NCBI RefSeq assembly: GCF_026210795.1
Contig: NC_089435.1
Location: 248,001-312,000, forward strand
Reading direction: 5' to 3'
DNA length: 64,000 nucleotides
Source of the DNA: Rhizophagus irregularis
Lineage: Eukaryota
Shown here: positions 17,476 to 63,879 of the stretch, piece by piece
Layout: each line of letters opens with the position of its first letter
How positions within the stretch are numbered: the first letter of the stretch is position 1
Position numbers and translations under genes: made by a program
The notes under the pieces: model-generated
What the model saw: only the letters and a program-made list of their open reading frames with translations
Database searches by the model: none
Told to the model about the DNA's origin: nothing

Positions 17476-17620
17476 AATGATGTTGATGATGATGATGATG
17501 TTGTTGTTGTTGATGATGATGATGATGATGATGATGTTGTTGATGATGATGATGATGTTGTTGTTGATGATGATGATGATGTTGTTGTTGATGTTGATGA
17601 TGATGTTGTTGTTGAGTTGT
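17476..17620 (-). repeat. (CAT/CAA)n trinucleotide tract encoding poly-His/Gln
   Basis: gat/gtt triplet runs on the plus strand; translates as QQQHHHQHQQQHHHHH... Confidence 0.9.
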
Positions 17621-20213: not shown

Positions 20214-20650
20214 TAAGGTTGCCTGCCGAAACTAAAAAGGAAATTCCGAAAGGTTTCGGCCAATCAAATCAAATGCCGAAAATGCCGAAATTAGGCCGAA
20301 ACTCGGTCTTAATTTTGGCCAAAATTAAAATTCGGCCGAAATTATGATATTGTGTCACGTGACGTTACACAAATTTCCAAAAAAGGAAATTTTGTTTCCC
20401 AGTAAAATCGGAGAAATGTGTCACACAAATGTTACATAAATTTCCATAAAAGGAAATTTACATGTCGATCATTATTCCGGCCAGAATTATAGTATTAATG
20501 TTGGCCAATAATTTCGGCCAAATTTTGGCCTTTCGGTAAAAGTTTCGGCATTGTATAATTTCGGCAAATTTACTTTTAATTGCCTAAACTTTCGGTTTTA
20601 AAAAAGTTTCGGCCTTGGCCTAAACTACTTGATTTCGGCAAGCAACCTTA
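20214..20650. mobile_element. hAT-type MITE nested in the Helitron 5' region (437 bp)
   Basis: TIRs taaggttgcctgccgaaa and tttcggcaagcaacctta; 8-bp TSD ctatggag at 20206-20213 and 20651-20658; many internal gccgaa/ttcggc motifs. Confidence 0.88.
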
Positions 20651-20677
20651 CTATGGAGTTTCTCTATAGCATGCATA

Positions 20678-23600
20678 ATGGATAATAAATTCATAAGCCG
20701 AGACACACTTCGAAAGCGTAAAGCTAGAGAGAATGAAACATCTAGTCAACGTGAAACACGCCTTGCAAAGCAACGTGAAATTACGCGGCAAAAAAGAGCA
20801 AGGGAAAATGCAAATGCTGAAGAGCGAGAGGCGCGTGATGCACGTGACAAAGAACGAAAACGCGTAAAGTTAGCAACAGAAACGGACGAACAACGTGAAA
20901 AATGTCTTAGTTACTACCGTGAACGAAGAAAATACCTGAAAAATATTCAAAATACAACGGCCCAAGACTTGAATTCGCAACAAAAAAATCCGCAGCAAAA
21001 GTATCAAGATAGTGGCGCGGACGGCGCAGAAGATGACGGCGCAGAAGATGGCGCAGACACACATACCGATGCTGGTGTACTTGGTGAATTCGAGCGAGAT
21101 TTTCTAAAGAAATTTCGTAACAAAGTTAATAAATTTAAACATTCGCTCTGCACGACGTGCAATGAAAATTTTCCATCAATTGTAATTATAAGGGGGAATG
21201 CCGATGTTGCCATAAAGAAAAGCAGCCAAAAAAATTTTCGAAAGATAACAATATGGACCCAGGCGAAGTACCTGATGAACTTCGTGATCTCACAGAAATT
21301 AAGGAAATGTTGGTTGCGCGAGTATTTCCCGTGATGTCGGTTTATAGACTTCGTGGAGGTCAGCATGGATATCGAGGAAACGTAATCAACTTTCCTCAAG
21401 ATGTCCAAGAATTTGCTTCAAAGCTTCCTAGGCATCCATCGTTATTAGATGTGCTTGTCATATGTCGTCAATCTGCGAGCAATGCGGAAGCGTTTAGGGA
21501 TTTCAAAGTTTGTCGTGATAAGGTCACTCAAGCGTTAATCTGGTTAAAACAAAATAATCGTTACTACGCTGACGTAATCATCGATCATGAAATTCTCCAG
21601 TCTCTGCCAATTGATGGCACAATTGATGACCAACTTCAAGATATTAATGAAGATATTGATTACGACGAAAGTGAGGATGACGTTATTACACGTACCTTCG
21701 TTCCACTTCCACCCTCAGCCAATCGTAAAGATACTGCTATTAGAAACACACTCGATCGAATACAAAATGAAAATCATCACATAATGTGGCCACAAATAAA
21801 TGGAAATCCTGTTAACGAATTCCAGACGTCAGGGTATATAGCATGCGCATTCCTAACCTTATACCCGACTGGAAGTGCAGACCTTCGCGCAGAACGTATT
21901 AGAGATATAAAGCCTGCCGAGTATTTCAGGTACCTTCTTCAATACAAGGACGGAAGATTTGCGCGTTATGCTCGTTGGCGGTATTTCACATTGAATTCCC
22001 AAATGCGTTGGCGGGCACTACAAGAAGGAAAGGTGTACGTTAAGCAAAATCTTACCGATGCGCAAATTACCGTTACAGATATTCAGGAAAGAATTACCCA
22101 AGGCGATAACTATATGGCCAATAGAATCATGCGATTTGGAGAAGGTTTACGTGGATCTCATCAATTTTGGTATGCTCGATGCAATGAATTAAATGATATG
22201 ATTAAGCAGATAGGACCGGATGGCTTAATCTTTTTTACGTTTAGTGCCGCCGATTTGCATTGGCCTGAGCTCCATTAGCTTATGCCATCTAACAGTAATC
22301 GTGAAACTTCAGCCAAACGCTATCACCAAAATATCGTGGATAATCCTCATATCGCGGACTGGTTTTTTCATAAGCGATTTGAAATTTTCTTTAATGACGT
22401 CTTAAAGAAACAATAGGATTTGGAAGATTGGTGGTTTAGGTTCGAATGGCAACATCGCGGCAGTGTTCACCACTGGTAAAAAAATGATTTATCCTACACA
22501 TATCTTACACATATTGGGTACTCAAAATGTAAAAAATCATACACAAATAATACACATATCATACACATATCGGGTACTAATATATATATCATACATATAT
22601 CAGGTACCTGATAGGTATACTATATATATAAATACCCGATATGTGTATGATATGTGTATTATTTGTGTATGATTTTCTACATTTTGAGTACCTGATATAT
22701 GTAAGATATATGTAGGATATGTGTAGGATAGACCATTTTTTTACCAGTGGCACGTGCATGGAATCGGAAAAAGAAAAAATGCACCTACAATAGAATGGAA
22801 GCATATGAAGGAAGATGAGAACAAAATGAATGAAATTATACAATATCTTGACAGTCTCGTTACCACAATAAATCCAGGACTCGATATGCCTGTTCCTAAA
22901 TGGCATCCGTGCCAAAAGAAAAGCAATGAATTAAATGATGACCAGCAAGACTACATCGACTTGATTAATAAATTGCAACGACATACCTGATGTAGTCCTG
23001 CGTACTGTCTTCGTATCAACCGAGAAGGACAACAAATTTGCCGGTTTAGATATCCTAAAGAAATTGTTGAAAGAACATTCGTGCAAGATGATAACAATGG
23101 ACAACCGGAGCTTGTAACGAGAAGGAACGATCAATACATAAATTCACATAGTCGACTTCAATTACAGGGTTGGAGGGCTAATGTGGATTTAAAGCCAATC
23201 CTTAGTATACATGCTGCGCTGCAATACGTTGCAAAATATGCAAGCAAAGCAGAACCGCGATCGTCAGCCTTTTCGGACGTATTAAATCGAATCCTTAGTG
23301 AAAGTCAGCCAGAAGATACGTTACTTGCTCCGGCCCAAAAGCTTTTATTACATAGTGTTGCGGAACAGGACATCTCTGCCCAAGAAACCTGCCATATTCT
23401 TCTCGGCCTTCCTCTTTACCATTCAAGTCAGCAATTTGTCTTCTTGAATCTTAACAAAGAAGCACCAAGATGGATTTGTGGTACTGGGGAAAGTGAAGAA
23501 TCTTATTCTGTTAATAATGATTCGGGGCGAACGGAGAAATCACCTTTGAAAATATATTGGGATCGACCTACCGAACTTGAAGATTTTACACTATTCCGGC

Positions 23601-25566
23601 TTTACTTGACACACAAGTTGGTTAAAGGTCGATGGAAAGAGTGTCAACAGGAAAATGTTGTGCGTGTCTTTCCACATCCATCATCCTTACGCGAGGGTCC
23701 TCAATGGGAGGAGTTTTGCCGAGTGAAGGTTCTTCTTCACGTTAGACACCGAGATCAAGATTTAACCGAAGACGGAACTATTGCATGGTCATCTTTGTAC
23801 AACGATTATATCGAAGAGATCAATGCTGATCCAATTGATCTACTTGGGTCATCTATAGACGATGAAGAAAGCGAAATAAACGATGAAGAAAAACTATTTG
23901 AAGAAGATGATAATGAACAAGACGAACATCGACCTGACTGGATGTTTCTTGCTGAGATGGGCCCAAAACCAAATTTCGATTGCTCTTTCGATCTAGGTTC
24001 ACGAGACATAGATCGGAACCATGACTGGATTAACGATCCGAGGGAACGATATACGGACCTCGTGGATATTGATACGTTTTTAAGTAGAAATCCTAAGATT
24101 GGTGAAGAAGAAAACGTATTAATGGATTATCAAACATTAAATGTTAATCAAAAAATTGTTTTCGAGCGAATAGAATCACATTATCACAATACGCTTGAGG
24201 GACGTCAAGATGAACCTTTAAGGATCATTGTGATGGGAACTGCTGGGACTGGTAAGACCTATCTAATAGAAGCAATCCAATGCAGGCTTCGAGAAATGGC
24301 AGGAGGACCTAAGTCACCTATAGCAGTGCTCGCTCCGACAGGAGTTGCAGCCTTCAACATTGAAGGTATAACGATTCATTCAGGGCTATCAATTCCGATA
24401 GTTAATGACGCAAACTGTTTTGATATAAGCGGAGAACGGCTGAAGCAACTACAAGATAAATTAAAAGATGTAAGTTACGTAATAATTGACAAGAAGAGTA
24501 TGGTTGGTCGTCGAATGCTTGCTATAATTGATAAGCGGCTCCGACAAGCTTTTCCTGAACATAATAACGAACCATTTGGTGGCAGGTCGATTATTTTGTT
24601 CGGTGACTTCGGCCAACTTCCACCTGTCCTTGATCTTCCTATGTATGCTGATACAAAACGAGGTTCATTATCTAATAGTGGTATTGTGGCATACAAGCAG
24701 TTCAAAGAAGCGTATAAGCTTGAAATTGCACAGCGCCAATCCAGAAATTCTAAAGAGCAACAAAACTTTAGAAATATTCTCTTAAGACTGCGTAATGGAG
24801 AATCTACTATAGATGATTGGAAAATTCTTACCACACGAATTGAAGACAAGCTCAGTATAATAGAACGTAGTAGATTCTCTGACGCTTTGTTCATTCTAAC
24901 AAAGTGGTCCGAAGTCAACGCGGTAAATATAGATCGACTTCGATCTTTGGATGCTCCTGTTGCCAAAATCCAAGCTATACATACAGGTGGAAAAGAAGCT
25001 AAAAAAGCTGACTCAGATACAGCGCATGGTCTCGGAGCATATATATTGCTGGCGAGAGGCGCAAGAGTCATGTTAACGGCAAACTTACAGACAGACGCTG
25101 GGCTAGTCAATGGTTCAATGGGAACTGTCCAAGACATAATATTCAAAGAAGATCAGGGTCCCCCTTCACTCCCTATTGCGGTCTTGATCTCTTTCGATAA
25201 TTATAAAGGTCCCACCATTACTAGCTTAGAGGGTAAAAGAGTTGTACCAATTGTACCAATTAGACGTACCTGGAATGGTAAATCTGGAGCTCCTTGTTCG
25301 CGCTTACAAATTCCAGTTCGTCTTGCGTGGGCAATTACGGTGCATAAAAGTCAGGGTCTTACATTACAAAAGGCTACAATAGACCTTGGTGATAAAGAGT
25401 TTATCGCAGGTCTTGCTTTTGTGGCAGTGTCTCGGGTACGCGCCCTTGAAGATCTTCTCTTCAAACCGTTCAATTTCGAGAGACTTTAGCGTATTAAAGA
25501 ATGCACAAGATTAAAAGAAAGATTAGCCGAAGAGAAACGTTTAGTTTCCATGATGCCAGGAAACTG
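20678..25566 (+). pseudogene. Helitron Rep (HUH endonuclease)-PIF1 helicase fusion, disrupted
   Basis: Rep motifs FFTFSAAD, EWQHRGSVH|VH and YVAKYASK. PIF1 motifs GTAGTGKT, APTGVAA, FGDFGQLPPV, GLVNGSMG, RLQIPVRLAWAITVHKSQGLTL and VAVSRV. Frameshift near 21190; stops at 22276, 22414, 22988 and 25487. Confidence 0.93.
22471..22749. mobile_element. CACTA-type MITE (279 bp), copy 1
   Basis: TIRs cactggtaaaaaaatg and catttttttaccagtg; largely palindromic; cac duplicated (with 1 extra nt); near-identical to 44290-44568. Confidence 0.9.
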
Positions 25567-33039: not shown

Positions 33040-34140
33040 AATATATACTTTCATTTTCGAGGTCCATCTTCTCTCAGCCAAGACTTCTCTTTATAAAATC
33101 TTCTTTTAGACCCTTTTCTTCACGTCTTCCTTTAGGTATGTGGGTTGGAGTGTGGGAGGGTGTGGGAGGGTGTGGGAGTGCGGGTTGGGAGTGTGGGAGT
33201 GTGGGAGTGTGAAAGTGTGGGAGTGCGGGTTGGGAGTGTGGAAGTGGGAGTGTGGGAGTGTGAAAGTATGGATTTGTGTGTGGGTTTGTGTATGTGGTGT
33301 TTCATTTTATTTTTTTTCGTCATCTTTTTTTTAGGTTTATTTCTCTCTGTCTAGGTCTTTTCTTTATTAGATCTTCTTTTAGGCCCTTTTTCTTTACATC
33401 TCTCTTTAGGTATGTGGGTTGGGAGTGTGGGTGGTGTGGTGTGGGAGTGTGGGTTGGGAGTGTGGGTTGGGAGTGCGAGTGGGTGTGGGAGTGTGAGAGT
33501 GTGGTGTGGGAGTGTGAGTTTGGAGTGCGGAGTGTGAGAGTGTGGTGTGGGAGTGCGGGTTGGGAGTGTGGGAGTGTGGGTTGGGGGTGCGGGTGGGTGT
33601 GGGGAGTGCGGGTTGGGAGTGTGGAAGTGGGAGTGTAGGAGTGTGAAAGTATGGATTTGTGTGTGGGTTTGTGTATGTGGTGTTTCATTTTTTTTTTTTC
33701 ATCATCTTTTTTTTAGGTTTATCTTCTCTCTGCCTAGGTCTTCACTTTATTAGATCTTCCTTTAGACCCTTTTTCTTTACGTCTCTCTTTAGGTATGTGG
33801 GTTGGGAGTGTGGGTGGTGTGGGAGTGCGTGGGTGCGGGTTGGGAGTGTGGGTGTGGGAGTGTGGGTGGGTGTGAGGAGTGCGGGTTGGAAGTGTGGGAG
33901 TGTGGGTGGGTGTGAGGAGTGCGGTTGGAAGTGGGAGTGTGGGAGTGTGGGTCGGGAGTGGGTGGGTGTGGGTGTGGATTGGGAGTGTAGGTGGTTGGGA
34001 GTGTAGTGTGGGAGTGTGGAGTGTGTGTGGCTTATTTTTTTTCGTATTCCTTTTTTTTAGGTCTATCTTCTCTCCATCTAGGTTTTCTCTTTATTAGGTC
34101 TTTTTTCTTTTAGGCCTTTTTCTTTACATCTTCCTTTCAT
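33040..34140 (+). repeat. Compound repeat: four pyrimidine-rich ~100-bp blocks separated by (GTGGGAGT)-type G-rich tracts
   Basis: Seen directly; the overlapping ORFs here are low-complexity artefacts. Confidence 0.9.
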
Positions 34141-38275: not shown

Positions 38276-39285
38276 TCAATTGTTTCAATTGTTTCATGAT
38301 TTTTTTTGTGAATTTTAAAATATGAGAGAATTTTTTCGAAAGAAACTTCGTTCCGAATTTCCGAATGGCAAAGTAGATAGGATAAAAGTATGACGTAGAA
38401 CCGATGATTAGTTACATCTTTTTTCCTTATATATCAAGAAAATATCACACAACATGATTAAGTAACTAAAAGAGCGGATTGTGAACCTTTTTTTTGTTTT
38501 TCACGTTTTACCAAGATTATCAAATTTGTAATAATAAATAGGATTACTTGTACGGCACAAAGTAAGAACAAATGTAATAACAATCAATGATCATTATGTT
38601 ATAACAATCGTCTGTACACGCCTTTAAATATATTATGCACCGTATCTGTTTTAAAAAGGATCGTTATTTGATATACTAATAAGGTTATGAAAGAGGTCCG
38701 AATGCTTAACGAAAGTAATAATGTACAGTACGTACAAATCGTTATTGATCATATTCGACGAAGATTTAACTATCCATAAACTAAAAACAGCAAATTAATG
38801 AATTTAACAGTTACTTTTAATGGTAAGATATTTAAGGAAATTTTGTATCATATGGGATCACTTGATGATCGACATTCCGATGTCAAATCCACTTCTTCGA
38901 TGTAATGATTAATTGTTTATGACAATCAACTATCATACTTAAATAACTACCAATTCAACTCAATGAAACAATTAAACTTGGCTGGGTTAATCACGATATA
39001 CTTTGTTACGTGAAAATATGAAAATATCATATGATATTAAATAATTTACCTGCAACTAATTAATTGTAATTTTACATAGGTGATCAACTTTATACGTTAC
39101 GCAAACAAAATAAAAGTGAAAAAGAAACCCACCCCAAATATAAATAAATACATGACCCCATTCTTTTCTTTTTTAAAAAAAATTTGAAATTCTCATAAAT
39201 ATACATTATAAACTAACGGTATTTTAAAAATTGTTAGAAACTGAATTCAGATAACCGTGTCACACAAGGTTATTCTAATTTACCA

Positions 39286-40207
39286 ATGAATCAAACTAAC
39301 TTCGGCATACCTTCAATTATTGACAATAATAATAAAAACTTTCAATACGCTTCAAACTCTGATCCGAATTCAGATACTTCGAATATTAATAACATTAATA
39401 CAACTGCTCCTGCACTTCAAAATTTTACATATGAATTTTATCTTCCTTTACCAAATGATACACGTATTTATCATGTTACTTATACCGAATTAAATTTAAT
39501 AGAAATCGCGCTACTCTTGAATAATAGAATTGATTTATCTCACATTCCCAACCATCGACTTCCGTACCATTATAATGTACAACGTTTAATTAGGCAAGAA
39601 ATTATTCAACAATCTGTTGGCTATCAACAAAACACCATCCCATGACAATCTTTTGATACTATTGATATTCAACCAATTTTCCAAGAGCATCCAGACGACA
39701 ATGCTTACGATGTATCTTCAATTCCTTTTATTCAACAATCTCTCGAATATCAACAAGAAGCCGTCCCACAACAATCTTTTGATAATATAAAATTTGAATT
39801 TTATCTTCCTTTACCAAATGATGTATATATCTATCATGTTACTTATACCGAATTAAATTTAACAGAAATCACGCAACTCTTAAATAATAGAATTGATTTA
39901 TCCTACATTCCTGATCATCGAATCCCATATCATTATAATGTACAACATTTAATTTGGCAACAAATTGTTCGACAACCTGAACCTAATTTTCAAGAATATT
40001 CAGATAATAGTGCTTACGATATATCTCCCATTCAACAACCTGTTGATTATCAACAAGATACCACCTACAACAATCTTTCGATGTTATATAGATATTCAAC
40101 CACTTTTCCAAGAATATTCAAATAATAATACTAACGATGCATCTTCAGTTCCTCCAAACAGTCCTGAAGATGGATACAATGGAGTTCAATCACATCAAAA
40201 TAACTAA
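39286..40207 (+). pseudogene. Gln-rich repeat gene, copy 3 (original start altered, stop at 39643, later frameshifts)
   Basis: Two EFYLPLPND..YHVTYTELN blocks and the family C-terminus PPNSPEDGYNGVQSHQNN. Confidence 0.75.
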
Positions 40208-40349: not shown

Positions 40350-42010
40350 TTATATTTATGTTTTTTTTTGATATCGCCTGGGTTTTTTTTTCAAATATGT
40401 CACATGATGTACAATATATAGAGTAAATTTATTAATCGGCTGACGGTTGATTTTTTAACTTAGCTAATTTTTGATCGGTTAAACTTAAAAATTTTATCGC
40501 AAAAAGATATTTAAAAAAAATTTTTTTGCAAACATATTTATTCAAAATAATCGTATCTAATGATATTTTATTTACAAATATTAAAATTTAAGTCACACAT
40601 TTACGATTTTAAAGAAAAAAATCACCGTATTTATTTTTTTAATGAAGTGATATAAATAAAAGAATTAATAACAATAAATAAAAAAGATAAACCGTAAATT
40701 GGTATCCAATCAAAATCTCGACAATCACTTGCACGACTAACACAAGATCGACAACAAAATCTCGACAATCCAAAATCTCGGCAATCCAAAATCCTGACAA
40801 GTCATTATATCGACAATTTTATGATGTGTGTTTCTAATAAAATAATTTTTGCAATATGTAATATTTAGTTTAAATGTGTTATGATTTTGTCGGAATTTTG
40901 ACTTGTCAGGATTTTGACTTGTCAAGATATTGGATTGTCGAGATTTTGTTGTCGGTCTTGTATCAGTCGCTCAAATGATTTTCGAGATTTCGTACCAAAA
41001 CCAAGTAAATTACAATGATCAAGGAGAAAGATGCTAATAAAAAAAATGAAATAGCAATGGTGTAATGGAAAGTAATAGAAGATGAAAGGGAGTAAAAAAG
41101 AGTAATGAGAAGTAATAGGAAACAAAAAAAAGAAATAGGACATGGTGAGAGATGAAAAGGAGTGGCGAGAGACGAAAAGAAGTGATGAGAGACGGAGAGG
41201 AGTGATGGGAGATGAAAAGGAGCGATAAAAGAAGTGATGGGAGACGAAAAGGGAGACGAAAAGGAGGGATGGGAGACGAAATAAGTGTTGGGAAGATGAA
41301 GAGGAGTGATGAGATACGAAAAGGTGCGATGGGAGACGAAAAGAAGTGATGGGAAGATGAAAAGAAGTGATGGGTGACGAAGAGGAGTGATGGGAGACGA
41401 GAAGGAGTGATAAGAGACAAAAAGAAATGATGGTAAGTAAACAGGAGAGAAAAAGAGATAATGGAAAATGAAAAGATGCAATAGAAAATAATGGGAGACG
41501 AAAACTCCCCACTCTCGCTGTGCAATGAAAGTGTCCAGACAAACCGGCATCAAATGACGCCATTCGAACCAAAAGAAATAAAACGAAAAACAAAAAAGAC
41601 AAAGGAAAAAGAAAAGGATGATGAAAAATGATGAGAGACAAAAGTAAAGAAATGATCATGATAGGAGGTTGGGTAATAATAGGAAACCAAGTAAAAAATA
41701 AAATCATAAAGTAAAAAAAATGAAGTTAGTAAGAAATGAAATATAAGATAGAAACGAAATAAAAAAGAATAAATAAAAATATTTTTATTAATTGTAGAAC
41801 CGAAAAAACTAAAATACCAAAAGAAAAAAATGAAATAAAATTAGTAAACCCAAATATGAAAGAGAAACAAATAAAAAAGAATAAAAAAAATGAGTAAGTA
41901 ACGAAACGTAAAGTGAAAAACAACTGAACCTTAATTGCAGAACCGGAAGGACTAAAGGACCTAAAAATAATGAAATAGAGTTAGTAAGACTACAATTGCT
42001 ACATCATTTT
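40350..42010. mobile_element. Unclassified insertion, probably a non-autonomous transposon, containing an inverted-motif cluster and a purine-rich minisatellite
   Basis: Absent from the paralogous cassettes. aaaatctcgacaa/ttgtcgagatttt motifs at 40710-40990; (gatgggagacgaaaagaagt)n at about 41140-41500. Ends approximate. Confidence 0.5.
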
Positions 42011-44289: not shown

Positions 44290-44568
44290 CACTAGTAAAA
44301 AAATGATTTATCCTACACATATCTTACACATATTGGGTACTCAAAATGTAGAAAATCATACATAAATAATACACATATCATACACATATCGGGTACTAAT
44401 ATATATATCATACATATATCAGGTACCTGATAGGTATACTATATATATAAATACCCGATATGTGTATGATATGTGTATTATTTGTGTATGATTTTCTACA
44501 TTTTGAGTACCTGATATATGTAAGATATGTGTAGGATATGTGTAGGATAGACCATTTTTTTACCAGTG
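44290..44568. mobile_element. CACTA-type MITE (279 bp), copy 2
   Basis: Starts CACTA and ends ccagtg; perfect 3-bp TSD gta. Confidence 0.92.
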
Positions 44569-45246: not shown

Positions 45247-46203
45247 TTTCTATACATACAAATTGACATCATTCAAAAAAATGTTCAGAGGACAGAAATT
45301 TTTTTGGTAGTTAATATCTTACTTATATATCATCACTATATGGCTATATTCCATATCCTTAGACAATTTGACTTGATGATGAATGTTCATTTACCCTCGT
45401 TAAAATATAATTTATTCTTATAATCAATTTCTTAAATAAAAATAGAGTTAGGACAAATAAATATTTTTATAATAAATAATAATAATAATAATAAAATAAT
45501 GTAAAAATTATAATGTAATCATCCACCCAAATCCATTCTTTAAAAAACTAAAAGGTTTTGGATTGTAAATTAAATCTTTAAATGAAGCATATTGGTGATT
45601 TAAAAATAAAAAATAAAAAAATAAAATATTCAAATTTTTTTTTTAATTTGATTACATTAGCATAAATTAATATATTTATCTTAGCATGTACATTTGTACT
45701 TATACATTAAATAGAATAAAGTTAGAAGACTTTAGTTTATCAAGAAAAAAAATAACTGTTCATTATATTTAAAATAAAAGTCAATAAATATAGATTAAAT
45801 ATAATTAGCTATTAAATAAGTATAAAAAATTTTACATTTTATTATTGAAATATTATTATTTTGATAATTTATATCTCATAATTGGAAAAGTTATAAAAAA
45901 AAGATTTATTTAAATTACAAACTAAGAAACTTGTAAAATATTACTTATTACTACTCTGATCTTAGTGTTTTAAATAATTCTAAGTATAATAAAAAAAAAG
46001 TGAATATAAATATTTAAGCTAAAAAAAAAGAATTATTTAAATTACAAACTAAGATACTTGTAAAATATTTTACTACTCTTGCCTTAGTGTTTAAATAAAT
46101 CTATACAGAATAAAATAAAAAACAATTTCTTTTGAATGCGTAATATCAAATATCACTTAAAAAAAGCTATAAATTTTTTTAAAAATAAACTGACAATGAT
46201 TAG

Positions 46204-49200
46204 TTAATTTTCATCTGTTTCAATAATTATATAAATAAATTAATTTTCATATAAATAATTTGCAAGATTAATTCTTTTATATATCATAGTACATACCTAG
46301 TGACCCTAAATCCTTAATTATATAATCATTCAAATCTTCACTTACTAGCATTTCATTTGTTTTTACACTAGCTCGTGAATCTTCACTTTCAAGAATTTCA
46401 TTCAATTTTTTACTAGTAAAACCAAGTAAGCGACTTTTATAACATGCTTGTGGATGTGATTCGGTAATAAGATTGTTATACTGCCCAATTGGCGCATTTA
46501 TAAATTCCACAATATTGCTTTTTAATTCTTCATTAGTTTGATCATCATCAGGATGGAAAATCCATTTTTCAATAGTTTTTAATACTTCTTTAGAAGATGG
46601 TCTTTTTGATGAATCTTCATTCCAACATTCTTTCATTAAATCTACATAACATTGTGGAGTATTTTCGATAATTTCAGGACGTTCACCTTTACAAATACTG
46701 AAACTAAGTTGAATATCATGTGCTCTATTATTAAATGGTGGTACCCCAGATGTAAGTTCCCACATAATCATAGAAAAACTATATATATCACTAGCTGGAG
46801 TATAAGATTTGCCTCTTAAAACTTCAGGAGCCATAAATGGCACTACACCATAAATATCATACTTTTTCAAAAATGATTTTACAGGTTGACATAATCCTAA
46901 ATCACTAATATAAATTTTATCACTATACACATCATCATTATGATTTAAAATATTACCATCATGAAAATCACAATGAATAAGATTTTTTTCATGTATATCA
47001 CTAAGTCCAGAAATAATTTCGTACAACATATATAATTTTTGATTCCAATTATTTTTGACTATTCTTGTTAAATTTTCTCTTAAATTGCCTTTATTTGCAT
47101 ACTCCATTACTACCATATATTTTGAAGTATTTGGATCTTCTGTGAATCCATAAACATCTATAATATCACTTGAAGCTGAAACACTTGTATGATATTCCCA
47201 CTATAAATAATAATAATAATTTATTAATATAAATAAATTTTAATTTAAATTAAAAATAGAAAATAATATACTATCATACTTCTTTTAAAAATTCATTTAA
47301 ATTTTCATTTAAATTCTTGTGGCATTTAAGAATTACTTGATTCTTTAACCAAGTAGCTTTATATATAGTACCAAATCCTCCTTCATTAAGATATTCAACA
47401 CTTTCAAATTTGTTATAAGGAATCCATCTTAATTCTTTTTCAAGAATAAAATTATCTATAACTGTATTTCCACTTTTCCCAAATCTATAAATTTAAATAA
47501 TTAAAATTATATATAGATATTATAGATTGTATTATAATTTACACAAAATAAATTATTACTTACTCTAAAATTTAAATATGAATTTAATGTAATACAATAT
47601 AAGTCTTAATTTTTGGATAAATATATACAATAACCTATAATTTACAACTTACCAACTAAAGTAACAGATGTTTTTCAAATGGAAGAATTCAGTTAACAAA
47701 TAAATATTATATAAATATATAATGATACATATACTTACAAGCTAGATCATAAATAATTTTTTTTTAATAAAGAAATTAGTTAGTTTAAATTATATGTAAA
47801 TGTTATAACAATAAGTAATAATAGAATTAAATAAATAACTTATAACTTACGATCTATTTAAATAAAGAAATTAGGTAGTTTAAATTATATGTAAATATTA
47901 TAACAATAAGTAATAATAGAATTAAATAAATAACTTACTCCCTATATTATTTAATAATTTTTTAAATAAAGAAATTAGTTAGTTTAAATTATATGTAAAT
48001 ATTATAACAATAAGTAATAATAGAATTAAATAAATAACTTACTCCCTATATTATTTAATAATTTTTTAAATAAAGAAATTAGTTAGTTTAAATTATATGT
48101 AAATGTTATAACAATAAGTAATAATAGAATTAAATAAATAACTTACACCCTATATTATTTAATAATTTTTTAAATAAAGAAATTAGTTAGTTTAAATTAT
48201 ATGTAAATATTATAACAATAAGTAATAATAGAATTAAATAAATAACTTACCATCTATAAAATAATTTTTTAAATAAAGAAATTAGTTAGTTTAAATTATA
48301 TGTAAATATTATAACAATAAGTAATAATAGAATTAAATAAATAACTTACGAGCTATATTATTTAATAATTTTTTAAATAAAGAAATTAGTTAGTTTAAAT
48401 TATATGTAAATATTAAAACAATAAGTAATAATAGAATTAAATAAATAACTTACTCCCTATATTATTTAATAATTTTTTAAATAAAGAAATTAGTTGTTTA
48501 AATTATATGTAAATATTATAACAATAAGTAATAATAGAATTAAATAAATAACTTACTCCCTATATTATTTAATAATTTTTTAAATAAAGAAATTAGTTAG
48601 TTTAAATTATATGTAAATGTTATAACAATAAGTAATAATAGAATTAAATAAATAACTTACGAACTATATTATTTAATAATTTTTTAAATAAAGAAATTAG
48701 TTAGTTTAAATTATATGTAAATATTATAACAATAAGTAATAATAGAATTAAATAAATAACTTACGAACTATATTATTTAATAATTTTTTAAATAAAGAAA
48801 TTAGTTAGTTTAAATTATATGTAAATATTATAACAATAAGTAATAATAGAATTAAATAAATAACTTACGAACTATATTATTTAATAATTTTTTAAATAAA
48901 GAAATTAGTTAGTTTAAATTATATGTAAATATTATAACAATAAGTAATAATAGAATTAAATAAATAACTTACTCCCTATATTATTTAATAATTTTTTAAA
49001 TAAAGAAATTAGTTAGTTTAAATTATATGTAAATGTTATAACAATAAGTAATAATAGAATTAAATAAATAACTTACACCCTATATTATTTAATAATTTTT
49101 TAAATAAAGAAATTAGTTAGTTTAAATTATATGTAAATATTATAACAATAAGTAATAATAGAATTAAATAAATAACTTACCATCTATAAAATAATTTTTT

Positions 49201-50277
49201 AAATAAAGAAATTAGTTAGTTTAAATTATATGTAAATATTATAACAATAAGTAATAATAGAATTAAATAAATAACTTACTCCCTATATTATTTAATAATT
49301 TTTTAAATAAAGAAATTAGTTAGTTTAAATTATATGTAAATGTTATAACAATAAGTAATAATAGAATTAAATAAATAACTTACGAGCTATATTATTTAAT
49401 AATTTTTTAAATAAAGAAATTAGTTAGTTTAAATTATATGTAAATATTATAACAATAAGTAATAATAGAATTAAATAAATAACTTACCATCTATAAAATA
49501 ATTTTTTAAATAAAGAAATTAGTTAGTTTAAATTATATGTAAATATTATAACAATAAGTAATAATAGAATTAAATAAATAACTTACTCCCTATATTATTT
49601 AATAATTTTTTAAACAAAGAAATTAGTTAGTTTAAATTATATGTAAATGTTATAACAATAAGTAATAATAGAATTAAATAAATAACTTACTCCCTATATT
49701 ATTTAATAATTTTTTAAATAAAGAAATTAGTTAGTTTAAATTATATGTAAATATTATAACAATAAGTAATAATAGAATTAAATAAATAACTTACGAGCTA
49801 TATTATTTAATAATTTTTTAAATAAAGAAATTAGTTAGTTTAAATTATATGTAAATATTATAACAAATAAGTAATAATAGAATTAAATAAATAACTTACC
49901 ATCTATAAAATAATTTTTTAAATAAAGAAATTAGTTAGTTTAAATTATATGTAAATATTATAATGATAAGTAATAATATAATTAAATAAATATCTTACCA
50001 TCTATAAAATAAATTTTTAAATAATGAAATTAGTTAAATTATATAAATAATATAAATATAGATATCATATAACTTACACCCTGTAGTATTATTAATTATT
50101 AATTTGTTAGATATAAAGATAATATAAAAGTATTTACTGTAAATTATATATATTACTTACAATCTAGTTATTTAAATTAAGAATATAATTAGTTGAATAA
50201 TGTAAAATATTGAATTGTTTATAAATAAAAACTTAATATTTCAGCTTGTTTGATATACCTTTAATATGTTGGTCCAT
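46204..50277 (-). CDS. TKL-like Ser/Thr(Tyr) kinase with a micro-exon-encoded N-terminus. Predicted 31 exons, ~405 aa: 50277-50259; 26 x 3-nt exons from 50163-50161 down to 47655-47653; 1-nt exon 47564; 47484-47280; 47200-46297; 46214-46204
   Basis: Kinase motifs GGFGTIYKA, VILK, HCDFHDGN, DLG, PFMAPE and DIYSF are intact. All predicted introns are GT..AG and 76-109 nt. The spliced frame is open: MDQHIKDWYDARRNARNGWILLRRTHGWRNPFEFGKSGNTVIDNFI... Kinase identity is certain; micro-exon usage is predicted. Confidence 0.8.
47742..50040 (-). repeat. Tandem array of ~22 near-identical units, mostly 99-105 bp; each unit is one intron plus a variable 3-nt exon
   Basis: Plus-strand unit: acttac[NNN]cta...aaagaaattagttagtttaaattatatgtaaat(a/g)ttataacaataagtaataatagaattaaataaata. 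NNN is tcc, acc, cat, gag, gaa or gat. Confidence 0.95.
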
Positions 50278-53022
50278 TACTATATCAAAATTCTCAAATT
50301 CTCCCCAACTGAAAAAGATAAAGTAAATATCTTTTTTTCTTTTTTTTTATTATTGAGCGCCTTTATCAGTATTAATAAATATGGTAATAATATTTATGCA
50401 AAATACATTATTTGTTATGTGCAAAACGATTGATCACAAGTACAAGCATTGCATCATTGCATGCATACTATATGACAAACAAATTTAGCACAACTGGAAT
50501 GTATATCAATTATTAATTGCAGTAACTGGTTAATCATTTCATCTTAGGTAATTATTAAGTACCAATGAAATGATTATCATTCATTAGCTTGAAGATAAGA
50601 ATGCCAAAAGCCCGTTTAGTTTTAATCATAGCATTATTTTTTAAATAAATTTATTGATCGTACTGACCATGAAATGCAATATATGGTTAATTTGATGCCC
50701 AAATATAGCTTACTTTTCCAGCATTTTTATATTAAGCTTGAAGCTTAAAGCATATACTTAAATGTAGGCTTAAGTATAAGTTTCAAACTTCAAGTTTCAA
50801 GTATTGGATCCACAGTTAGCTTCTCTACAGATGGCAGGTTAATATATATATATATATTTTTTTTAAAAAAAACGTGATTCTTTTTCAAAAAAAAAAAATG
50901 ATAATCGTATACGTAATCATGTACATGTACGTAACAAAATGGTAAAAATGATAAGCATAATTATTTATTTACTATTGTTACCGGTTGTATCAGTAATTAA
51001 GAGTCGTATAACTAGCAGTATTATATCATATAATTACTCGATTACCAACAAGATTCTTACTCAATACTACCTATCCTGGTATTCCGGTATTGTTCGTTAA
51101 GAATTGTCCAGGTGAATAACTACAAAATATGATAAATAATAATACGCAATGGTTATAGAAACAAATGTTAAATGACTGTCAGAAATAACGTGTAAATTTA
51201 ACCAAAGTATAATGATTTTATTAATAGATATAGGACTTCAGGCTTTTACAACAAAGTGATAGAGAAAAGTGATAGGGAATATATTTTAAGACAATTTACT
51301 AGGAGAATATATATATTAAGGTAACTGCTTCTATCAAAGAGTTGGCAGAAGGTATATTTATATATTCATATTAACGATTGTTATTGAATTTATTGAATGA
51401 TATTTTGTAGTATCATATAAAAGTTTATTATTAGAGATTTTTTTGACGATCATTATAATTTATAGTAATCCCTGTTAAAATTCACAAATTCTGTGAGAAC
51501 GCTCCAAATAGTTGTTTTTTTTCATATGATATCTCCCTTTTCAAAAAAAAGTAAACAATTCAAGCCTTTTTAGCTTCTTTAGATACTTCTCAATAAGAAA
51601 AAAAAAATGTTTTTCTTTAGTATTTTCAAAAGAGTGAGGTATTACGTTGTTCTTTGGGTTCTCGTGTATTTGTCTAATCTTTCATTATTGCACAAAGACT
51701 AATAATGCATAGTTTATCGAATTTTTAAAATTTCGGAAATTTTAATGGGTTCTATTTCAAAGTGTGCGCAGATAAATTACTTTCCGAGATATAATTTATT
51801 AATATCAGAAAATAAAGTTAAAAAATCCGAATGAATCTAAAATACCCATATTCAATTCATAACCGGCATAAATTAAGCCATTTCGTATAATCTCTTAATA
51901 TGGTAAATACGTGCATCATTTGGTAAAGGAAATAGAATTCAAATGTATTATTCTGAGGCGCAGAATACAGAATTATCAGTCACTGGCGCAGCGCCAATCA
52001 CTAATTAAAATGTTTGTACTACATAAATTAGCCTATCTTCATTTAGTTGGGACAAAGATTTTAACAAAATATCACTTTTTTTACGATACATTAACCAATT
52101 TTAGTTCTTTCAAAAGTTTTTTACGTGACGAGCCAACCATTAGTATAGTTGTATTGTTGTAAAATTTTGTTGTAAAATTTGGTTGAAAGATTTATATGTA
52201 CGTTGTTGATAAATAGCTGAGAAGGTGAATTCTTTATTATACAGTAAGCGCCAGAACTAAAAAATGTTTAGTTTATAATTACATGTTTCAGAATAATATT
52301 TATTAATCAATAACTTTTTTACATCAGATTTATATGACAGCAACCAACTAAAATAATATTATTTTCGTTTAAAAACAAGATCTTAAATAAAAGTAGTATA
52401 ATTTTGAAGGCTAAATTTGCTTTTATAGCTTGAAAACATTCTATTTATTTGTAAATTTAAAAAAATAGCCAACTACCTGTTATTAATAAAGTTTACATGT
52501 GACGAATAAACCAGAAATTTGAATATTTACTAATAACAAGAAAGTTTCCTAATATTATTTCATTGGATTTATTCGACTCAATTCCTATATATCAGCTTAA
52601 ATTCGTTTGATAGAATATTATGTAAATAATAAAAGTAATACTAAATTATTAGTATTCCTAATATTTATGCATATTATATAATTTAAATTTATTTACTAAT
52701 AGATAAATTGTAAATTATTTATACTGTATATAAAAATTAAGATATAATTGTTGTTTTCAATATTTTTTATAGTCTAATAAAGAAATTCGTGTTAACGAAA
52801 AAAAAACTGTAAAGAGTAATTACTAAATGATTCATTCGTTTATTGTTTACTAATTGGTGAAAAAAAAAAATATTTTTTAGAATTTTATAAATTGGATAAG
52901 AATGGTTTCACAACAAACTTAATTAATAAAGAGTAATCATGGTCATATAAAAATGTATGAAATACATATATTGATAAGAAATAATATATTATATCGAAAA
53001 TAATAAATTTTAAAATATATAA

Positions 53023-54590: not shown

Positions 54591-56891
54591 AAAAATGTTG
54601 CGAAACATTTTTTTATTAAATTATCTATTAAAAATATTTCGCATTTTTATTAAACTTTTTAAGAAAAATTCATGCGAATTTTTCTTCAACCTGTCAGGTC
54701 AGGTTCAGAGTTCTGGAACCTGTAAAATTATAAATTAATTAAATAAATTAAATTAAACATATTTGGTTTATTCAGCTGATAGATAGATTTTAAAACAAAA
54801 AAAAAAAGAAATGAAATTTCTTTATAAATATGAGTATTGATGAAAGAAAACTTTGAAATTGAATAGATACTATTTTACCTCTTAATCCTAAATTATAGTC
54901 ATCTAATTTTTCTCTTGTTTATTAAAAATTAATGCACAATTAAATGGCTACGGAAAAGCCCAAATCGCAATTTTACTCTAATGATTACACTATTCAATTC
55001 AGCATTCAGTTCCTTTAATATTAAGTATTAATATAAATTAAATTAAATATATATAAATATATATAATTCTGATCCATAATTTGATAATGAACAAGGGCGA
55101 TCATTTTTTGGAAAAATTTACCGGAATCAAAATGATCAGCAAAATTTTAAATCATAGTGATAGTAAAAAAAATGATCGACAAACCACATATTTAATTAGT
55201 AAACGGAAATGCCCGGTGACTGTTATTTAATATATAAATTATCTTGATTTATATTAGGTATTCCGTTTATGGAAGTTACGGAGTTTTTGTTTCATTGATA
55301 ATTATTAGAAATTAGAGATGTGCATGTACAACAGTACATGGCAAAACGTCCAACAATCGTTTAATGCCAGAATATTCAAATATACTTAAAAAGGATCGTC
55401 ATTTGTCGTTTGAGAATTTCTGAATGTAAAATAACCATAATTTGTCGTAGTCAGTCAAAAGAGACCGTCATATTATACATTAAATAAAATTGCATATTGA
55501 TTACATTTTTCTTCTTGATATCTTGTGCAATGTTGAAAGCAATGTGAGTAATTAGCGAAAAAAAATTATTAAGTTCATTTCTGACTGATCGGATTTTTGA
55601 TCAGGGTTTGAGTTAATAATTATTAATTATTATAAAGCTAAACAAGATCATGTCGTTTTTAACTTACTGATATTTTTTAGATAGATTATTATTGCAGATA
55701 TTTTTGACGCATTACGTCATTTGGGTTAAATATCACATATATAGTTTATTTATTATTTTTATATGGAATACAGTTATTGAGATCAATAGAGAATGTTCCA
55801 TTACCTTCTTGGGTGACAAAATTATGCAACTTGATCAATTACATATCCACAAAAAAGTAGAATTTTTGATCGCAATTTAAAAATAAGCAAAAATGAACGT
55901 GTTAATTGTTATTGTTGAAAATTATTTTAATAACATTTTTTGACCGGTTAAACCAATTTTGCGATCAAAATCCTAACAATTATGCAGAAATTGATAGGCA
56001 TAGTATCGCAAAAATTTTACTTTTAAACATATAGGGTTGTAAAATTACATTTTAGGTTGTGTAACTTAATTAATATACAGTAAGTGCTATGTTAAATTTT
56101 ATAGTATTTACAATTTTACATATTTTTCAAATTTTTAAAAAAATTGTCAAAGAATTTTTAATTAGTCCAAGAATTAAGTAGAATATCTCAACAGCTAGTA
56201 ATCAGTAATTCAAAATCATGCCAAATTTTTATACATTATAAATTTAGTTTCATTCTATAAAATATAAAAAATTTTGTTCAATTTGAATCGTTAATTTATA
56301 ACAAGAAATATTATCAATCGCTACACAAAGTATAGTGGGACAATGGAACGATTTGGGAATGAACAGATCATATGATTAATAATTTTGTTTATTTTATTTA
56401 ATTACATACTATATGTATTCAATCTAGGGAAAATAGTTTTTACCAATATATCTGGGATTTCTGGAAAATCATGCGAAACTTTCATTATGTTGATCAACTC
56501 GGTCATCTACTTATAGCGCAGTTTGTAAAACAATCAATCGAACCTTTCATAATGTTGATCAATCTTGCCATGTTTGGTTAACTAAAAACGCCTATCATAC
56601 TAAATATGTATATAACTTGCTTTTTTAGATAATAGGAGGAAAAACTTTAAAGCGGTGACGTTAATTTATTTCTCAGTATGCATAATCTGCATCATGCCGG
56701 CAAAATAATTTATACAAGATGAAAACTAATCCAAATGTGACGTTTAGACGTTACACAACTTTATATATTATCTTGTATATACATAAAGAGAAAAGAAAAA
56801 AGATATATATAAATACGTTGTTATTTTTTCTTTGAAATTTTCACCAGTACACACACAGTATAAACCCAACAATTTAAAAATTATTAGAAAC

Positions 56892-57879
56892 ATGGATTAT
56901 TCTAATTTATCAATGGGTCAAATTAGAAATAACTTCATTAATAATTCTAATGCAATTGCTCCTGCGCCTCAAAATATTACATTTGAATTTTATCTTCCTT
57001 TACCAAATAATACACGTATCTACCATGTTACTTATACTGAATTAAATTCAACGGAAATCGCGCGACTCTTGAATAATAGAATTGATTTATCTCATATTCC
57101 AAATCATCGACTTCCATATCATTATAATGTACAACATTTAATTCGGCAACAAATCACAATCTTTCGATACTATGAATGTTCAACCGATTTACCAAGAATA
57201 TTCGGATAATAATGCTTTCGATTTATCTTTAATTCTTCCTATTCAACAATCTGTTGATTATCAACAAGATGCTATCCCACAACAATCTTTCGATACTATG
57301 GATATTCAACGTAATTTCCAAGAATATTCAGATGATAATGCTGACGATGTATCTTCAATTCTTCCTATTCCTTTTGATTATAAACAAGAAACCACTTCAC
57401 AACAATCTTCCGACAATATAAAATTTGAATTTTATCTTCCTTTACCAAATGATGCACATGTCTATCATGTTACTTATGCCGAATTAAATTCAAAAGAAAT
57501 CGCGCAACTCTTAAATAATAAAATTGATTTATCCCACATACCCGATCATCAACTTCCATATCATAATAATGTACAACATTTAATTTGGCAACAAATTATT
57601 CAACAGCCTGTTGATTATCAACAACAAGATGCTATCCCACAACAATCTTTCGATACTATGTTCCAAGAATATTCAGATAATAGTTCTTACGATATATCTC
57701 CTATTCAACAACCTGTTGATTATCAACAAGACACCACTCTACAACAATCTTTCGATACTATAGATATTCAACCCATTTTCCAAGAATATTCAAATAATAA
57801 TGCTAACGATGCATCTTCAGTTCCCCCAAACAGTCCTGAAGATGGATACAATGGAATTCAATCACATCAAAATAACTAA
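56892..57879 (+). pseudogene. Gln-rich repeat gene, copy 4 (single frameshift near 57155)
   Basis: The ORF from MDYSNL (56892) and the 57172-57879 ORF are consecutive parts of one paralog; two conserved blocks. Confidence 0.75.
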
Positions 57880-60848: not shown

Positions 60849-63346
60849 CTAATTTCTTATGCGTTTTCCTATTTTAAATTAAATAAATAAATAAATAAAA
60901 ATATAAACAACAAATAGTGAAAACATTTAATCAAATAATACTGTATATTTACCATTATTTTCATAAGAATTAATATTTAATTCTTCAATATTTCGTTTAG
61001 TTCCAAGTACGTTGAGTTCACTAATAATATAAAATCGTATTTTATTGATTTTTGAATTGTTTGAAATTAAATTATAAATAATAAATATTTTTAACTTTAA
61101 ATACCTTTCAATACCTATGCCTAATTCGAATTCTTTTGAAATATAATCTATAAGGAAAAAAATTTTTAATTTATTTATTCAAAGATGACTAATAATAGTA
61201 TTACGGTATAGTACATACCATTTGATGAAAAATTGATAGATGAACAATTAGTAAATATAGATGAACATTTAGAAATGTAAGAATTTAATGATCTACTTGT
61301 ATAAATAGCTTTTGGATGAGGCTTTTCACTAAACTTGGAACCAAGCTTCTTCGAAACTATTAAATTTTTCCTTTTTAATTCAGCTTGGTTAAATTGATCA
61401 TGATAGTATTTGAGAGGTTCATCATAATTATGACAACGCCATGTTTCACAAGTATAATAAATTTCTTTTATAGAAGGTCTTTTTTTTGGATCAGAATCCC
61501 AACAACTTTTCATTATATTAGCATAACATTCTGGTGTATCTTCTGTAATTTCAGGTCTTACACCATCCATAATATTAAAAATAAGAATATGATCATGTTC
61601 AATATTAGCAAAAGGCTTACAACCTGTTGTAAGTTCCCACATGATCATACCCAAACTATAAATATCAGATTCTTTAGAATATACAGACCCTTTAAATATT
61701 TCTGGTGCAATATAAGGTATCACTCCATAAATTTCGTTATCCGATGAGGTATCATTTGCAGGTCGTGATAATCCTAGATCTCCGATTTTAATTTTAGCTG
61801 GATAATCTACCAATATATTTCCACTATGAAAATCTCGATGTATAAACTTTGCATTGTGAATAGTCCGGAGTCTAAAATAAAATAATTAATAAATTTGCAT
61901 TATGAATTAATCATTTACCAATATATTTAAAATATGATTACCCAAATGTGATTTGAAATAAAATAATTATTTTCTGTTGCCAATTAATTTTTGTAAAATT
62001 CTTTTGTAAATACTTATGTAAATCTCCATTCTGCGCATATTGCATAACTAGTATATAATCGTCTAATTTTGGATCCTTTGTAAAACCATGGGTTTTAATA
62101 ATAGTTTCATAACTTCCATAATGATGATTTATCTTTAACTATTAATTCCCAAGATTAATAAGATTAAAATTAAAATATTTTTAATGAATATCAAATAAAA
62201 ATAATTACGAATTGTTGACGTATTTACCTCATTCATAAAATATTTTTCAGCAAATTGAGAGTTTTTAAACCTTTTTAAAATGACAATGTTATCTCTAGTC
62301 AAAAAACGATAAATATTCTTATTTGAACCATTTAACCGAGTTGCTTGATATACAATACTAAACCCTCCTTTTGTTATTTCTTTTACATTTGTAAATTGAG
62401 AATATGGTATATATCTCATTAATAGTCCTTTAAAATTATCGCAAATAGAAATACAACACATCTCGAATGGAACGAAATATTCATCAATACTTTTTACATT
62501 GTTAGCAAAATTAGCTATTTCCAATTGATATGATCTTATGCTAACAAGAAAATCATCTAAAACACTATCTCCACTGTTAATACCAATCATCTTTGTGATA
62601 TCAAAAGTAATAGTTGATACTCTCTTGCATTTTTTACATTGCGATTGATTTGTATATCCAAAAATAACATTTGTTGTTAAACAAAATCTACATCCAATAA
62701 AAAATATGAAACAATTTTCACAATACTTTTGACAGTTAGATGTTAATATTAATTCTTCAAAACAAAAACAACTAAATCTATTTTCCCACCATGGTAAATA
62801 AATAATTGAAATAGGCTTTTTAGTTAAGGTTGATTCTATATATCCAATAGAGATTAGATAACAATTTGAACATAATTTAAATTCCGTTATAATGTTATGA
62901 TCTGTTCCTTGATATAATAATTTTCCGCATAGTTTACAATATTTTTCACTTTCGAACACGTTTTTGTATATGGGAATTTTTTTCGATTCCGAAGTGTAAC
63001 TACGTATTTGTTTAAAAACTAATATTGTCAAGCAATTTCTACAGCATTCTTGAATATTTCGTGATACTTTTGTTCCATTTATTTCATGTTCACTACATTC
63101 TAAGTCCTCTGCAAATAAATATACGTCCAAGTATATATTATTATCTGTTATTTTAGTTAAATAACATGATAAGCATTTTTTGCAATATTTTTGCTCATAA
63201 ATTAACGTTTTTGTATATACTCCTCCACAATGAAAACAATATTCATCTCTCAAATTAAATGAAACGAAAAAAATCGGTACGGGACTAGATTTTAATTTTG
63301 GTGTTGGATCAAAAGAATTTTCATCATTTACATTTATAAGATCCAT
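60849..63346 (-). CDS. TKL-like kinase with a long Cys-rich (multi-CxxC) N-terminus; exons 63346-62228, 62138-61942, 61871-61219, 61147-61105, 61020-60953, 60868-60849
   Basis: Motifs GGFSIVYQA, VILK, HRDFHSGN, GDLG, PYIAPE and DIYSLG. Five GT-AG introns keep the frame to GKRIRN*. Confidence 0.88.
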
Positions 63347-63879
63347 TTTATTATGTTTTCCATATAAGCAAGTATTGAAAATTCGATATATTTATAGTTT
63401 TTCAAATCCTTAAATGATGAATATCTGAATAAATATAGAATTTTCTATCAGTGAATTCTCCAGAAAATTCGGTTCGTATTTATTTTTGGAAGTACTTTAT
63501 CTAAGGGTATAATAAATGCATAATGTTAATGATGCTGATCTGTTGATCTACATGCCTAACTCTACCAATTGAAAGGAGAAGAACAAAACAAGGGGGGGAT
63601 GTTTCTATTTTAAGAATTTCATTGAAAAATATTTTTCCTTTACGTTTTGTATATTAAAATAAAATATATAGTTTGACTTCTATCCGTGATTACTAACTAA
63701 ATTGTTGCTGATCGTATTTTAATTTTTGTGCGATCTGTCTGTCGTGTAAAACATTAAACATTTGAACCATCATTTTGATTTTTTAAAGAAAAATTTCCTT
63801 ATATGTCCAAATACACGATCTATTATTGTTAAAGAAAATAGCAAGTTAAAATAAATTTGTGGTAATTTAAATATTATTA

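Follow-up and report, generated by a model that had tools for sequence, protein, structure and literature searches.

What is a run of near-identical units doing at the front of a protein kinase gene, and why is the variation among these units concentrated on three of their letters? The question is raised by the minus strand of a 64,000-nt stretch of Rhizophagus irregularis DNA (RefSeq assembly GCF_026210795.1, contig NC_089435.1, positions 248,001 to 312,000; called the window below, with positions counted from its first letter), which by its sequence carries a tyrosine kinase-like (TKL)-type kinase gene. Our favoured explanation, to which we assign a probability of roughly 55%, is that this is a transcribed kinase gene whose front consists of 26 exons of 3 nt and one of 1 nt, that the central 21 or so of these were duplicated, and that selection on a short peptide probably maintains the diversity of their letters. 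What the data show directly is the exon-intron anatomy, the duplication of blocks, an excess of diversity in the triplets, and the transcription and splicing of the kinase exons.

Exons of one and three nucleotides

On the minus strand, a 19-nt coding exon is followed by the 26 3-nt exons, the 1-nt exon (47564) and two kinase exons, and every small exon is flanked by YAG on its 5' side and by GTAAG on its 3' side. The joined exons form a single open frame of about 408 residues, with 79 of about 1,224 coding nt in microexons. The small exons are in phase 1, each triplet closing one codon and opening the next, and the last Glu codon is split over three exons. It is the presence of the 1-nt exon that puts the kinase in frame with the first exon; without 47564 it is out of frame. 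The 27 residues coded by the small exons include 6 Arg, 3 Trp and 3 Asn, and this stretch is predicted to lie directly before the kinase N-lobe; the N-terminus predicted from the joined sequence is charged, not hydrophobic. All 16 junction codons that can be formed from the 9 triplet types are sense codons, specifying 15 amino acids, so that any gain, loss or reordering of triplets stays open.

Over 98% of its length, the open reading frame (ORF) at 47200-46277 (minus strand, 307 codons) was 100% identical to the kinase-like protein P0001 of Rhizophagus irregularis. In the public model of P0001, translation starts from an internal triplet and the last exon is 5 nt long. PF07714 (PK_Tyr_Ser-Thr) scored 144.1 bits on P0001 (curated cut-off 23.1, E 6e-42), and Pfam returned kinase families only, with no NACHT and ankyrin arrangement. 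The catalytic part is ordinary, with 320 matches at E <= 1e-100. The parts of the gene are listed here with the evidence for each; X11, X5 and X2 are runs aligned to the gene and L001 is a paralog locus, all described further below.

50259..50277, minus strand: first coding exon, ATG at 50277, 19 coding nt, ends in phase 1; from the sequence, with a predicted start codon.
50164..50258, minus strand: intron 1, 95 nt, GTATAT donor, unrelated to the core (z -1.0).
49999..50163, minus strand: 5' edge, with 3-nt exons 50163-50161, 50080-50078 and 50001-49999 and two introns (z 1.5 and 4.2); from the sequence.
47742..49998, minus strand: homogenised core, with 22 related introns (85-109 nt) and 21 3-nt exons (49902 to 47851); from repeat and intron comparison, and for the 3'-most units also RNA.
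47565..47741, minus strand: 3' edge, with 3-nt exons 47741-47739 and 47655-47653 and introns 47738-47656 and 47652-47565; from the sequence, and the RNA consensus matches both exons letter for letter.
47564..47564, minus strand: 1-nt exon (A), the middle base of the Glu codon split over three exons; from the sequence, the RNA loose end (10/10), paralog locus L001 and paralog models.
47485..47563, minus strand: intron behind the 1-nt exon, 79 nt; two X11 contigs depart from the genome at 47484, and X11 depth is 0 in bins 47502-47690, which are covered by X5 and X2.
47280..47484, minus strand: kinase exon A, 205 nt, with the glycine-rich loop and the ATP-binding Lys; 100% identical to P0001, X11 records 5 and 7 with 0 other letters.
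47201..47279, minus strand: intron, 79 nt, phase 0; removed in X11 record 5.
46277..47200, minus strand: kinase exon B, 307 codons and stop; PF07714 on P0001, X11 records 1, 3 and 5 with 0 other letters.

The paralog models P0028 and P0140 likewise begin M-D-Q, and their first exon likewise ends in Lys before the next unit. A pyrimidine run with CAG about 31 nt upstream of the ATG (50309-50330, minus strand) could be the acceptor of an intron in the 5' untranslated region. Core introns carry a branch-site-like motif, CTAAC or CTAAT, 21-42 nt upstream of the AG. A first-pass annotation of this DNA had bounded the array at 47565 and 50258, which left the 1-nt exon at 47564 and the intron 47563-47485 outside. 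It had also held that the outer introns keep an AG-NNN-GTAAG motif. This stands as far as frequency is concerned, the motif occurring 4 times in the 512 nt of non-repeated outer stretches against a mean of 0.02 in 5000 Markov samples (the remainder of the window has 5 in 118,000 nt); it fails at the two ends, with the 1-nt exon in place of NNN behind intron 47652-47565 and GTATAT as the donor at 50258.

Duplicated units and the diversity of their triplets

Tandem Repeats Finder (TRF) reported a period of 104 nt with 21.2 copies at 95%, together with a higher-order repeat of period 307, and the array has the head-to-tail units of 10-100+ nt and high identity by which minisatellites are defined. 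The 22 introns from 49998 to 47742 form one family, matching the modal 101-nt unit at 83-100% (z 11.9-18.7 relative to shuffled interiors), in agreement with the earlier description of about 22 nearly identical central introns. The four outer introns that had been called unrelated to them indeed showed no detectable kinship to the core (z -1.0, 1.5, 1.8 and 0.4). Intron 50077-50002 is a distant relative of the core (z 4.2) and also resembles 47738-47656 (z 3.8), these two being the sole pair above z 2 among 21 outer intron pairs. By these comparisons, the outer introns appear to be mostly older, unrelated introns and not decayed core copies; if so, their splice sites indicate that the gene was already a microexon gene, and are not the purified ends of a satellite. 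The first pass had taken the conserved edge sites as a sign of purifying selection on splicing rather than of a neutral minisatellite. No copy of a core intron was found elsewhere in the 64-kb window, and 13 loci from a metagenome scan gave one low-complexity match of 23 nt.

The longest exact internal repeat has 408 nt at a distance of 930 (49279-48872 and 48349-47942), and a second exact repeat has 228 nt at a distance of 307. Because both span exons, whole units must have been duplicated. The 307-nt period is a trimer of a short intron with ATG, a long intron with a triplet X, and a C-marked intron with GGA; among 19 core units, 5 of 5 C-marked introns precede GGA and 3 of 3 short introns precede ATG. 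The blocks listed in the first pass (tcc-acc-cat, gag-cat and gaa) were all recovered, position for position, as was the association of the ATG exon with an intron shorter by 5 nt: the four ATG exons (49902-48253) all follow a 96-nt intron, and no other triplet does. An intron and its downstream exon travel as a unit, and their linkage is expected from physical proximity (the ATG marker lies within about 10 nt of the exon). The duplication of intron-exon units, in tandem and in blocks, is intron gain in this gene, as had been proposed.

In contrast to this homogeneity of the introns, the triplets are very diverse. In the 19 core units they differ at 331 of 513 compared sites (0.645), whereas their introns differ at 154 of 16,998 (0.009), so that triplet diversity is roughly 70-fold above intron diversity. 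To derive the five triplet types from one another takes at least 7 substitutions at 3 positions; the roughly 101 intron positions, by comparison, show 4 columns with substitutions and 3 indel events. The excess has a P of 5e-8 when counted per base and of 2e-4 if each triplet change is one event. In a neutral minisatellite, variation is expected to be even over the unit, and the two values above depart from this. Unequal crossing-over alone fails to explain the triplet excess and accounts for the number and order of units only. This qualifies the first-pass proposal that crossing-over shuffles single codons: units were duplicated, as the exact repeats show, but what they carry are phase-1 split codons, and crossing-over does not account for the diversity of their triplets. 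Since change is concentrated on three letters, either selection favours differing peptides, or something spares or swaps the exon letters.

Transcripts and paralogs

Four of 24 listed runs (X11, X5, X2 and X17) were aligned to 46150-47690, a span that ends short of the core and exon 1. X11, which was guessed to be RNA, consisted of assembled contigs only. Its records 1, 3, 5 and 7 were identical to the gene (0 other letters), and record 5 joins 47280 to 47200, the spliced kinase intron; the kinase exons are transcribed and spliced. Record 7, a 315-nt contig of this gene, is identical over 193 nt and then continues with 122 nt of other sequence from exactly 47484, compared with 98 nt predicted from there to the ATG under full inclusion. 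Record 6 is a paralog contig (14 other letters, 6 gaps) and also departs from the genome at 47484. The introns are covered in X5 and X2, which look like DNA in which many paralogs are added together; X17, RNA on record, gave paralog pieces only and no contig at the junction.

The consensus of the loose ends has 30 letters, mixing records 6 and 7, and its agreement of 0.73 corresponds to 16 differing columns, unweighted; a depth-weighted reading was ruled out, as no whole number of differing columns yields 0.73. Full inclusion matched 23 of the 30 letters, the first 10 exactly, and all 7 mismatches are the alphabetically earlier letter, which would fit an alphabetical tie-break. Unspliced sequence matched 10 of 30, the edge exons only 17 of 30 (4 violations), and skips of any one of the last 12 exons 9-22 of 30 (1-8 violations apiece). 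The phase-0 reading of the public model with its 5-nt last exon was rejected, being out of frame with exon 1 and matching 7 of 30. When the central order was shuffled 200,000 times, 1.1% of the trials reached 23 of 30 and 0.16% did so free of violations. Support that the 1-nt exon and the last few triplets (about ten) are used in mRNA comes from one run, and the earlier claim that the splice sites are functional gains support at the 3' end from these contigs.

Tyrosine kinase-like genes are described as expanded in Rhizophagus irregularis in a passage of PMC4219462 citing Tisserant et al. 2013. Three word searches gave 235 proteins, 92 of which have the start motif of the exon at 47484, and 79 have at least 2 residues before it. 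In 29 of these 79 models the N-terminus ends in [CGRS]-K (background 1.6%), that is, in a triplet read into its GTAAG donor; 8 models end in L-E, with the donor behind the 1-nt exon used, and 3 others read through that exon. Of 60 models with at least 20 N-terminal residues, 9 have a 20-residue window with 17-20 G/I/L/M/V/F, a score that is never above 14 in 210 kinase parts. These nine strings (21-48 residues, mutually different, from R. irregularis and R. diaphanus, with I, G, L, M and V making up 84% of their 284 residues) look like arrays translated in the wrong phase, and the triplets of this gene, if read as codons, yield a similar G/I/L/M/V/F-type string. One of the 13 loci in the metagenome scan, L001, belongs to this subfamily, and its 124 nt of upstream sequence keep the 1-nt exon. 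Judged from these protein models and this locus, the microexon-array design is likely family-wide. In an intronless relative subfamily, a CxxC module occupies the same position (64 of 76 motif matches), which would fit a variable appendage before the N-lobe. In several models (P0021, P0025, P0028, P0018 and P0062) the first exon is longer and carries acidic Glu/Ser/Gly repeats, and two of these models start M-G-Q; the first exon of this gene has no acidic stretch.

Explanations and known systems

In the favoured explanation, one intron-exon unit would have been amplified in an old gene with a handful of 1-3-nt exons. The near-identical 100-nt introns would make the 3-nt coding units recombinogenic by giving them the homology needed for unequal exchange, and such exchange would add, delete and reorder exons while never shifting the frame. 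As the units are split codons, a gain or swap alters two neighbouring residues and does not move one codon. Intron-definition splicing of the 76-109-nt introns, which have canonical signals, would join the exons serially, and the predicted product has an in-frame 27-residue stretch ahead of the kinase N-lobe. Selection on this peptide would maintain the triplet diversity, and we hypothesize that the peptide sets the partner, substrate or location of the kinase.

Variety could also be generated by combinatorial alternative splicing, with the DNA array as a palette from which mRNAs take different in-frame subsets. We consider it unlikely that this is the main diversifier, as is reported for the nank family of Tuber melanosporum, and the idea is compatible with the favoured explanation. 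Every exon subset is in frame and stop-free. The distinct 30-nt tails that could arise number 684,236, and among the compatible ones the tail with the best fit (26/30) requires skipping; there is also precedent in passages of PMC4986451 and PMC13449251. However, X11 gave one unbranched 315-nt contig reaching 122 nt past the junction, where heavy isoform mixing would be expected to break the contig (contigs drop rare variants), and omitting any single one of the last 12 exons gives a poorer fit than full inclusion does. Another possibility, which seems improbable to us, is neutral growth of a minisatellite, by slippage or unequal exchange, within a microexon gene that was already old; the added exons would be tolerated in a dispensable linker or skipped, with no selection on their letters. 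A change about 70-fold concentrated on 3 exon letters, and not even over the 104-nt unit, is difficult to reconcile with such growth, as are the long, mutually different strings of narrow alphabet in 9 paralog models, even though the minisatellite statistics are typical, the kinase family is large, undergoes turnover and varies widely at its N-termini, the first exon is far shorter here than in several paralogs, and any 3-nt unit is frame-neutral and could survive without benefit.

The triplet excess might instead be retained old diversity, if ancient triplets had stayed in place while introns were overwritten via conversion tracts ending at the shared GTAAG/TAG ends, followed by a few block duplications. 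Such a history would fit the core triplets, which start with the same four dinucleotides (AT, GG, CT and TT) as six edge triplets, two of which recur unchanged in the core, and the graded similarity of introns at the borders (z 4.2 and 14.0 on the 5' side; 13.3, 11.9 and 1.8 on the 3' side). We regard it as quite improbable: conversion between unrelated introns would have only 5+3 nt of homology, the exact 408- and 228-nt repeats span exons and imply that whole units were duplicated, and something sparing the exon letters would still be required. An assembly artefact with mis-multiplied units, or a pseudogene, is the least credible. The core is spanned by no aligned read, two single-base length variants (100 and 102 nt) could be read errors, and P0001 is alone in its 90% cluster, but mis-assembly does not produce five triplet types linked to intron markers, nor higher-order blocks, and the gene is intact, with spliced contigs matching it with 0 other letters.

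Several points weigh against the favoured explanation of a duplicated array under selection for its peptide. The RNA support comes from one run of 4, guessed to be RNA, and from a 30-letter consensus mixed with a paralog contig. Seven of its 30 letters disagree with full inclusion and are explained only by the tie-break, a rule that we inferred; 36 of 684,236 enumerated tails are compatible under this rule, and one multi-skip tail fits better (26/30) than full inclusion (23/30). If the consensus was built as "first contig wins", its letters may be a paralog's own microexon string. Sixteen upstream triplets lie outside the RNA view, and inclusion of the 5' edge exons in mRNA was not seen. The paralog arrays were deduced from protein models, paralog DNA being seen only as the 124 nt in L001; the introns of that locus are about 90% identical to those of the window, so its kept splice sites reflect descent more than they prove selection. 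The predicted phase-1 peptide was not seen by eye in the N-termini of the 235 word-search matches and 26 representatives (372 proteins retrieved). Besides, stop avoidance with 9 triplet types is not significant alone (about 0.15 by chance). Among the 26 representatives inspected, none had a transcript-derived N-terminus.

The closest known case is that of the codon-sized exons of the Tuber nank genes, which passages of PMC4986451 and PMC13449251 describe as diversified by alternative splicing; the present gene works like nank and is not a nank gene. Both are genes of mycorrhizal fungi, belong to expanded families and contain a row of tens of 3-nt exons that is interpreted as a means of generating diversity; that the paralogs here share such rows has a strong indirect signal in their protein models, and paralog DNA shows the 1-nt exon in L001. 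The protein here is a PF07714 kinase and not a NOD-like receptor (NLR), and the fungus belongs to another phylum. Phase-1 split codons, a 1-nt closing exon and block duplication with near-identical introns are features of this gene, the comparison with nank being drawn from the passages only. Whereas alternative splicing is the mechanism reported there for nank, the mixed 30-letter consensus here fits full inclusion and also some skipping isoforms. Single-nucleotide exons are described in passages on Fusarium CYP621A (PMC12940212), on Arabidopsis (PMC4674806) and on Coprinopsis cinerea, with 1-nt exons in 13 genes and 89 gene models with an exon of 3 nt or less (PMC12230235). As in these passages, a 1-nt internal exon here gives the middle base of a codon and was overlooked by gene predictors; those exons are described as isolated, whereas this one closes a 26-exon run and seems common to the paralog family. 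With regard to the expanded kinase family of Rhizophagus irregularis, the catalytic part is alike, and the public models examined, that of this gene among them, lack the microexon-coded N-terminus or have it in the wrong phase.

Microexon genes (MEGs) of Schistosoma encode secreted proteins mostly by microexons of 6-36 nt, whose symmetric in-frame runs vary the protein. Such runs are found here as well, but the exons are 3 nt long and supply about 27 of the roughly 408 residues in a kinase of intracellular type; unlike in a MEG, most of the coding sequence lies outside the 79 nt of microexons. Introner-like elements are near-identical introns scattered over unrelated genes. In the literature, as covered by titles and abstract starts and without subscription papers and genome-paper supplements, we found no description of microexon arrays in Glomeromycota kinases. 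Novel aspects of the present case are the gene family that hosts the array, the phase that splits codons and is closed by an exon of 1 nt, RNA support for part of the array, and traces of the design across the family in a model organism.

Elsewhere in the window, a second kinase gene of another subfamily lies at 61175-63391 (minus strand), with a Cys-rich N-terminal exon (no Pfam match) and PF07714 in 61178-61885. A Helitron-like element at 20600-25500 (plus strand), GC-richer than its surroundings, has several ORFs, with DUF6570 and Helitron_like_N in 21166-22278 and a PIF1 helicase in 22991-25489; identical 30-nt and 11-nt tandem units at 22534-22730 and 44367-44549 suggest a duplicated fragment of this element. 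Related Gln-rich ORFs with an internal repeat occur on the plus strand at 9342-9926, 19152-19763, 39238-40125 and 56787-57879 (57142-57876 was tested, with no Pfam match). Low-complexity repeats with strong strand bias lie at 33140-34030 (G/T-rich) and 41146-41437 (A/G-rich), a 3-nt unit is repeated 43 times at 17477-17605 (its minus strand reads poly-His/Gln), and an alpha/beta hydrolase (Abhydrolase_3) exon is present at 1350-2363 (minus strand).

The locus is a clear case of intron gain through tandem duplication. If our reading is right, dozens of public Rhizophagus kinase models have a wrong N-terminus, and 27 consecutive 1-3-nt exons between near-identical introns would be a natural test of the spliceosome. 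More tentatively, the gene may represent a subfamily of arbuscular-mycorrhizal kinases with a hypervariable specificity tag in split-codon exons, reshuffled at the DNA level by nuclei and isolates, perhaps with variety from splicing in addition. Such a subfamily would be receptor-diversifying and convergent with Tuber nank; if it exists, a largely clonal symbiont would possess a receptor-diversifying system hidden in all current annotations. The array would also offer a directly testable class of loci for the long-standing question of how this fungus, a model species whose long-read DNA and RNA data are publicly available, generates and uses variety in its hugely expanded kinase families.

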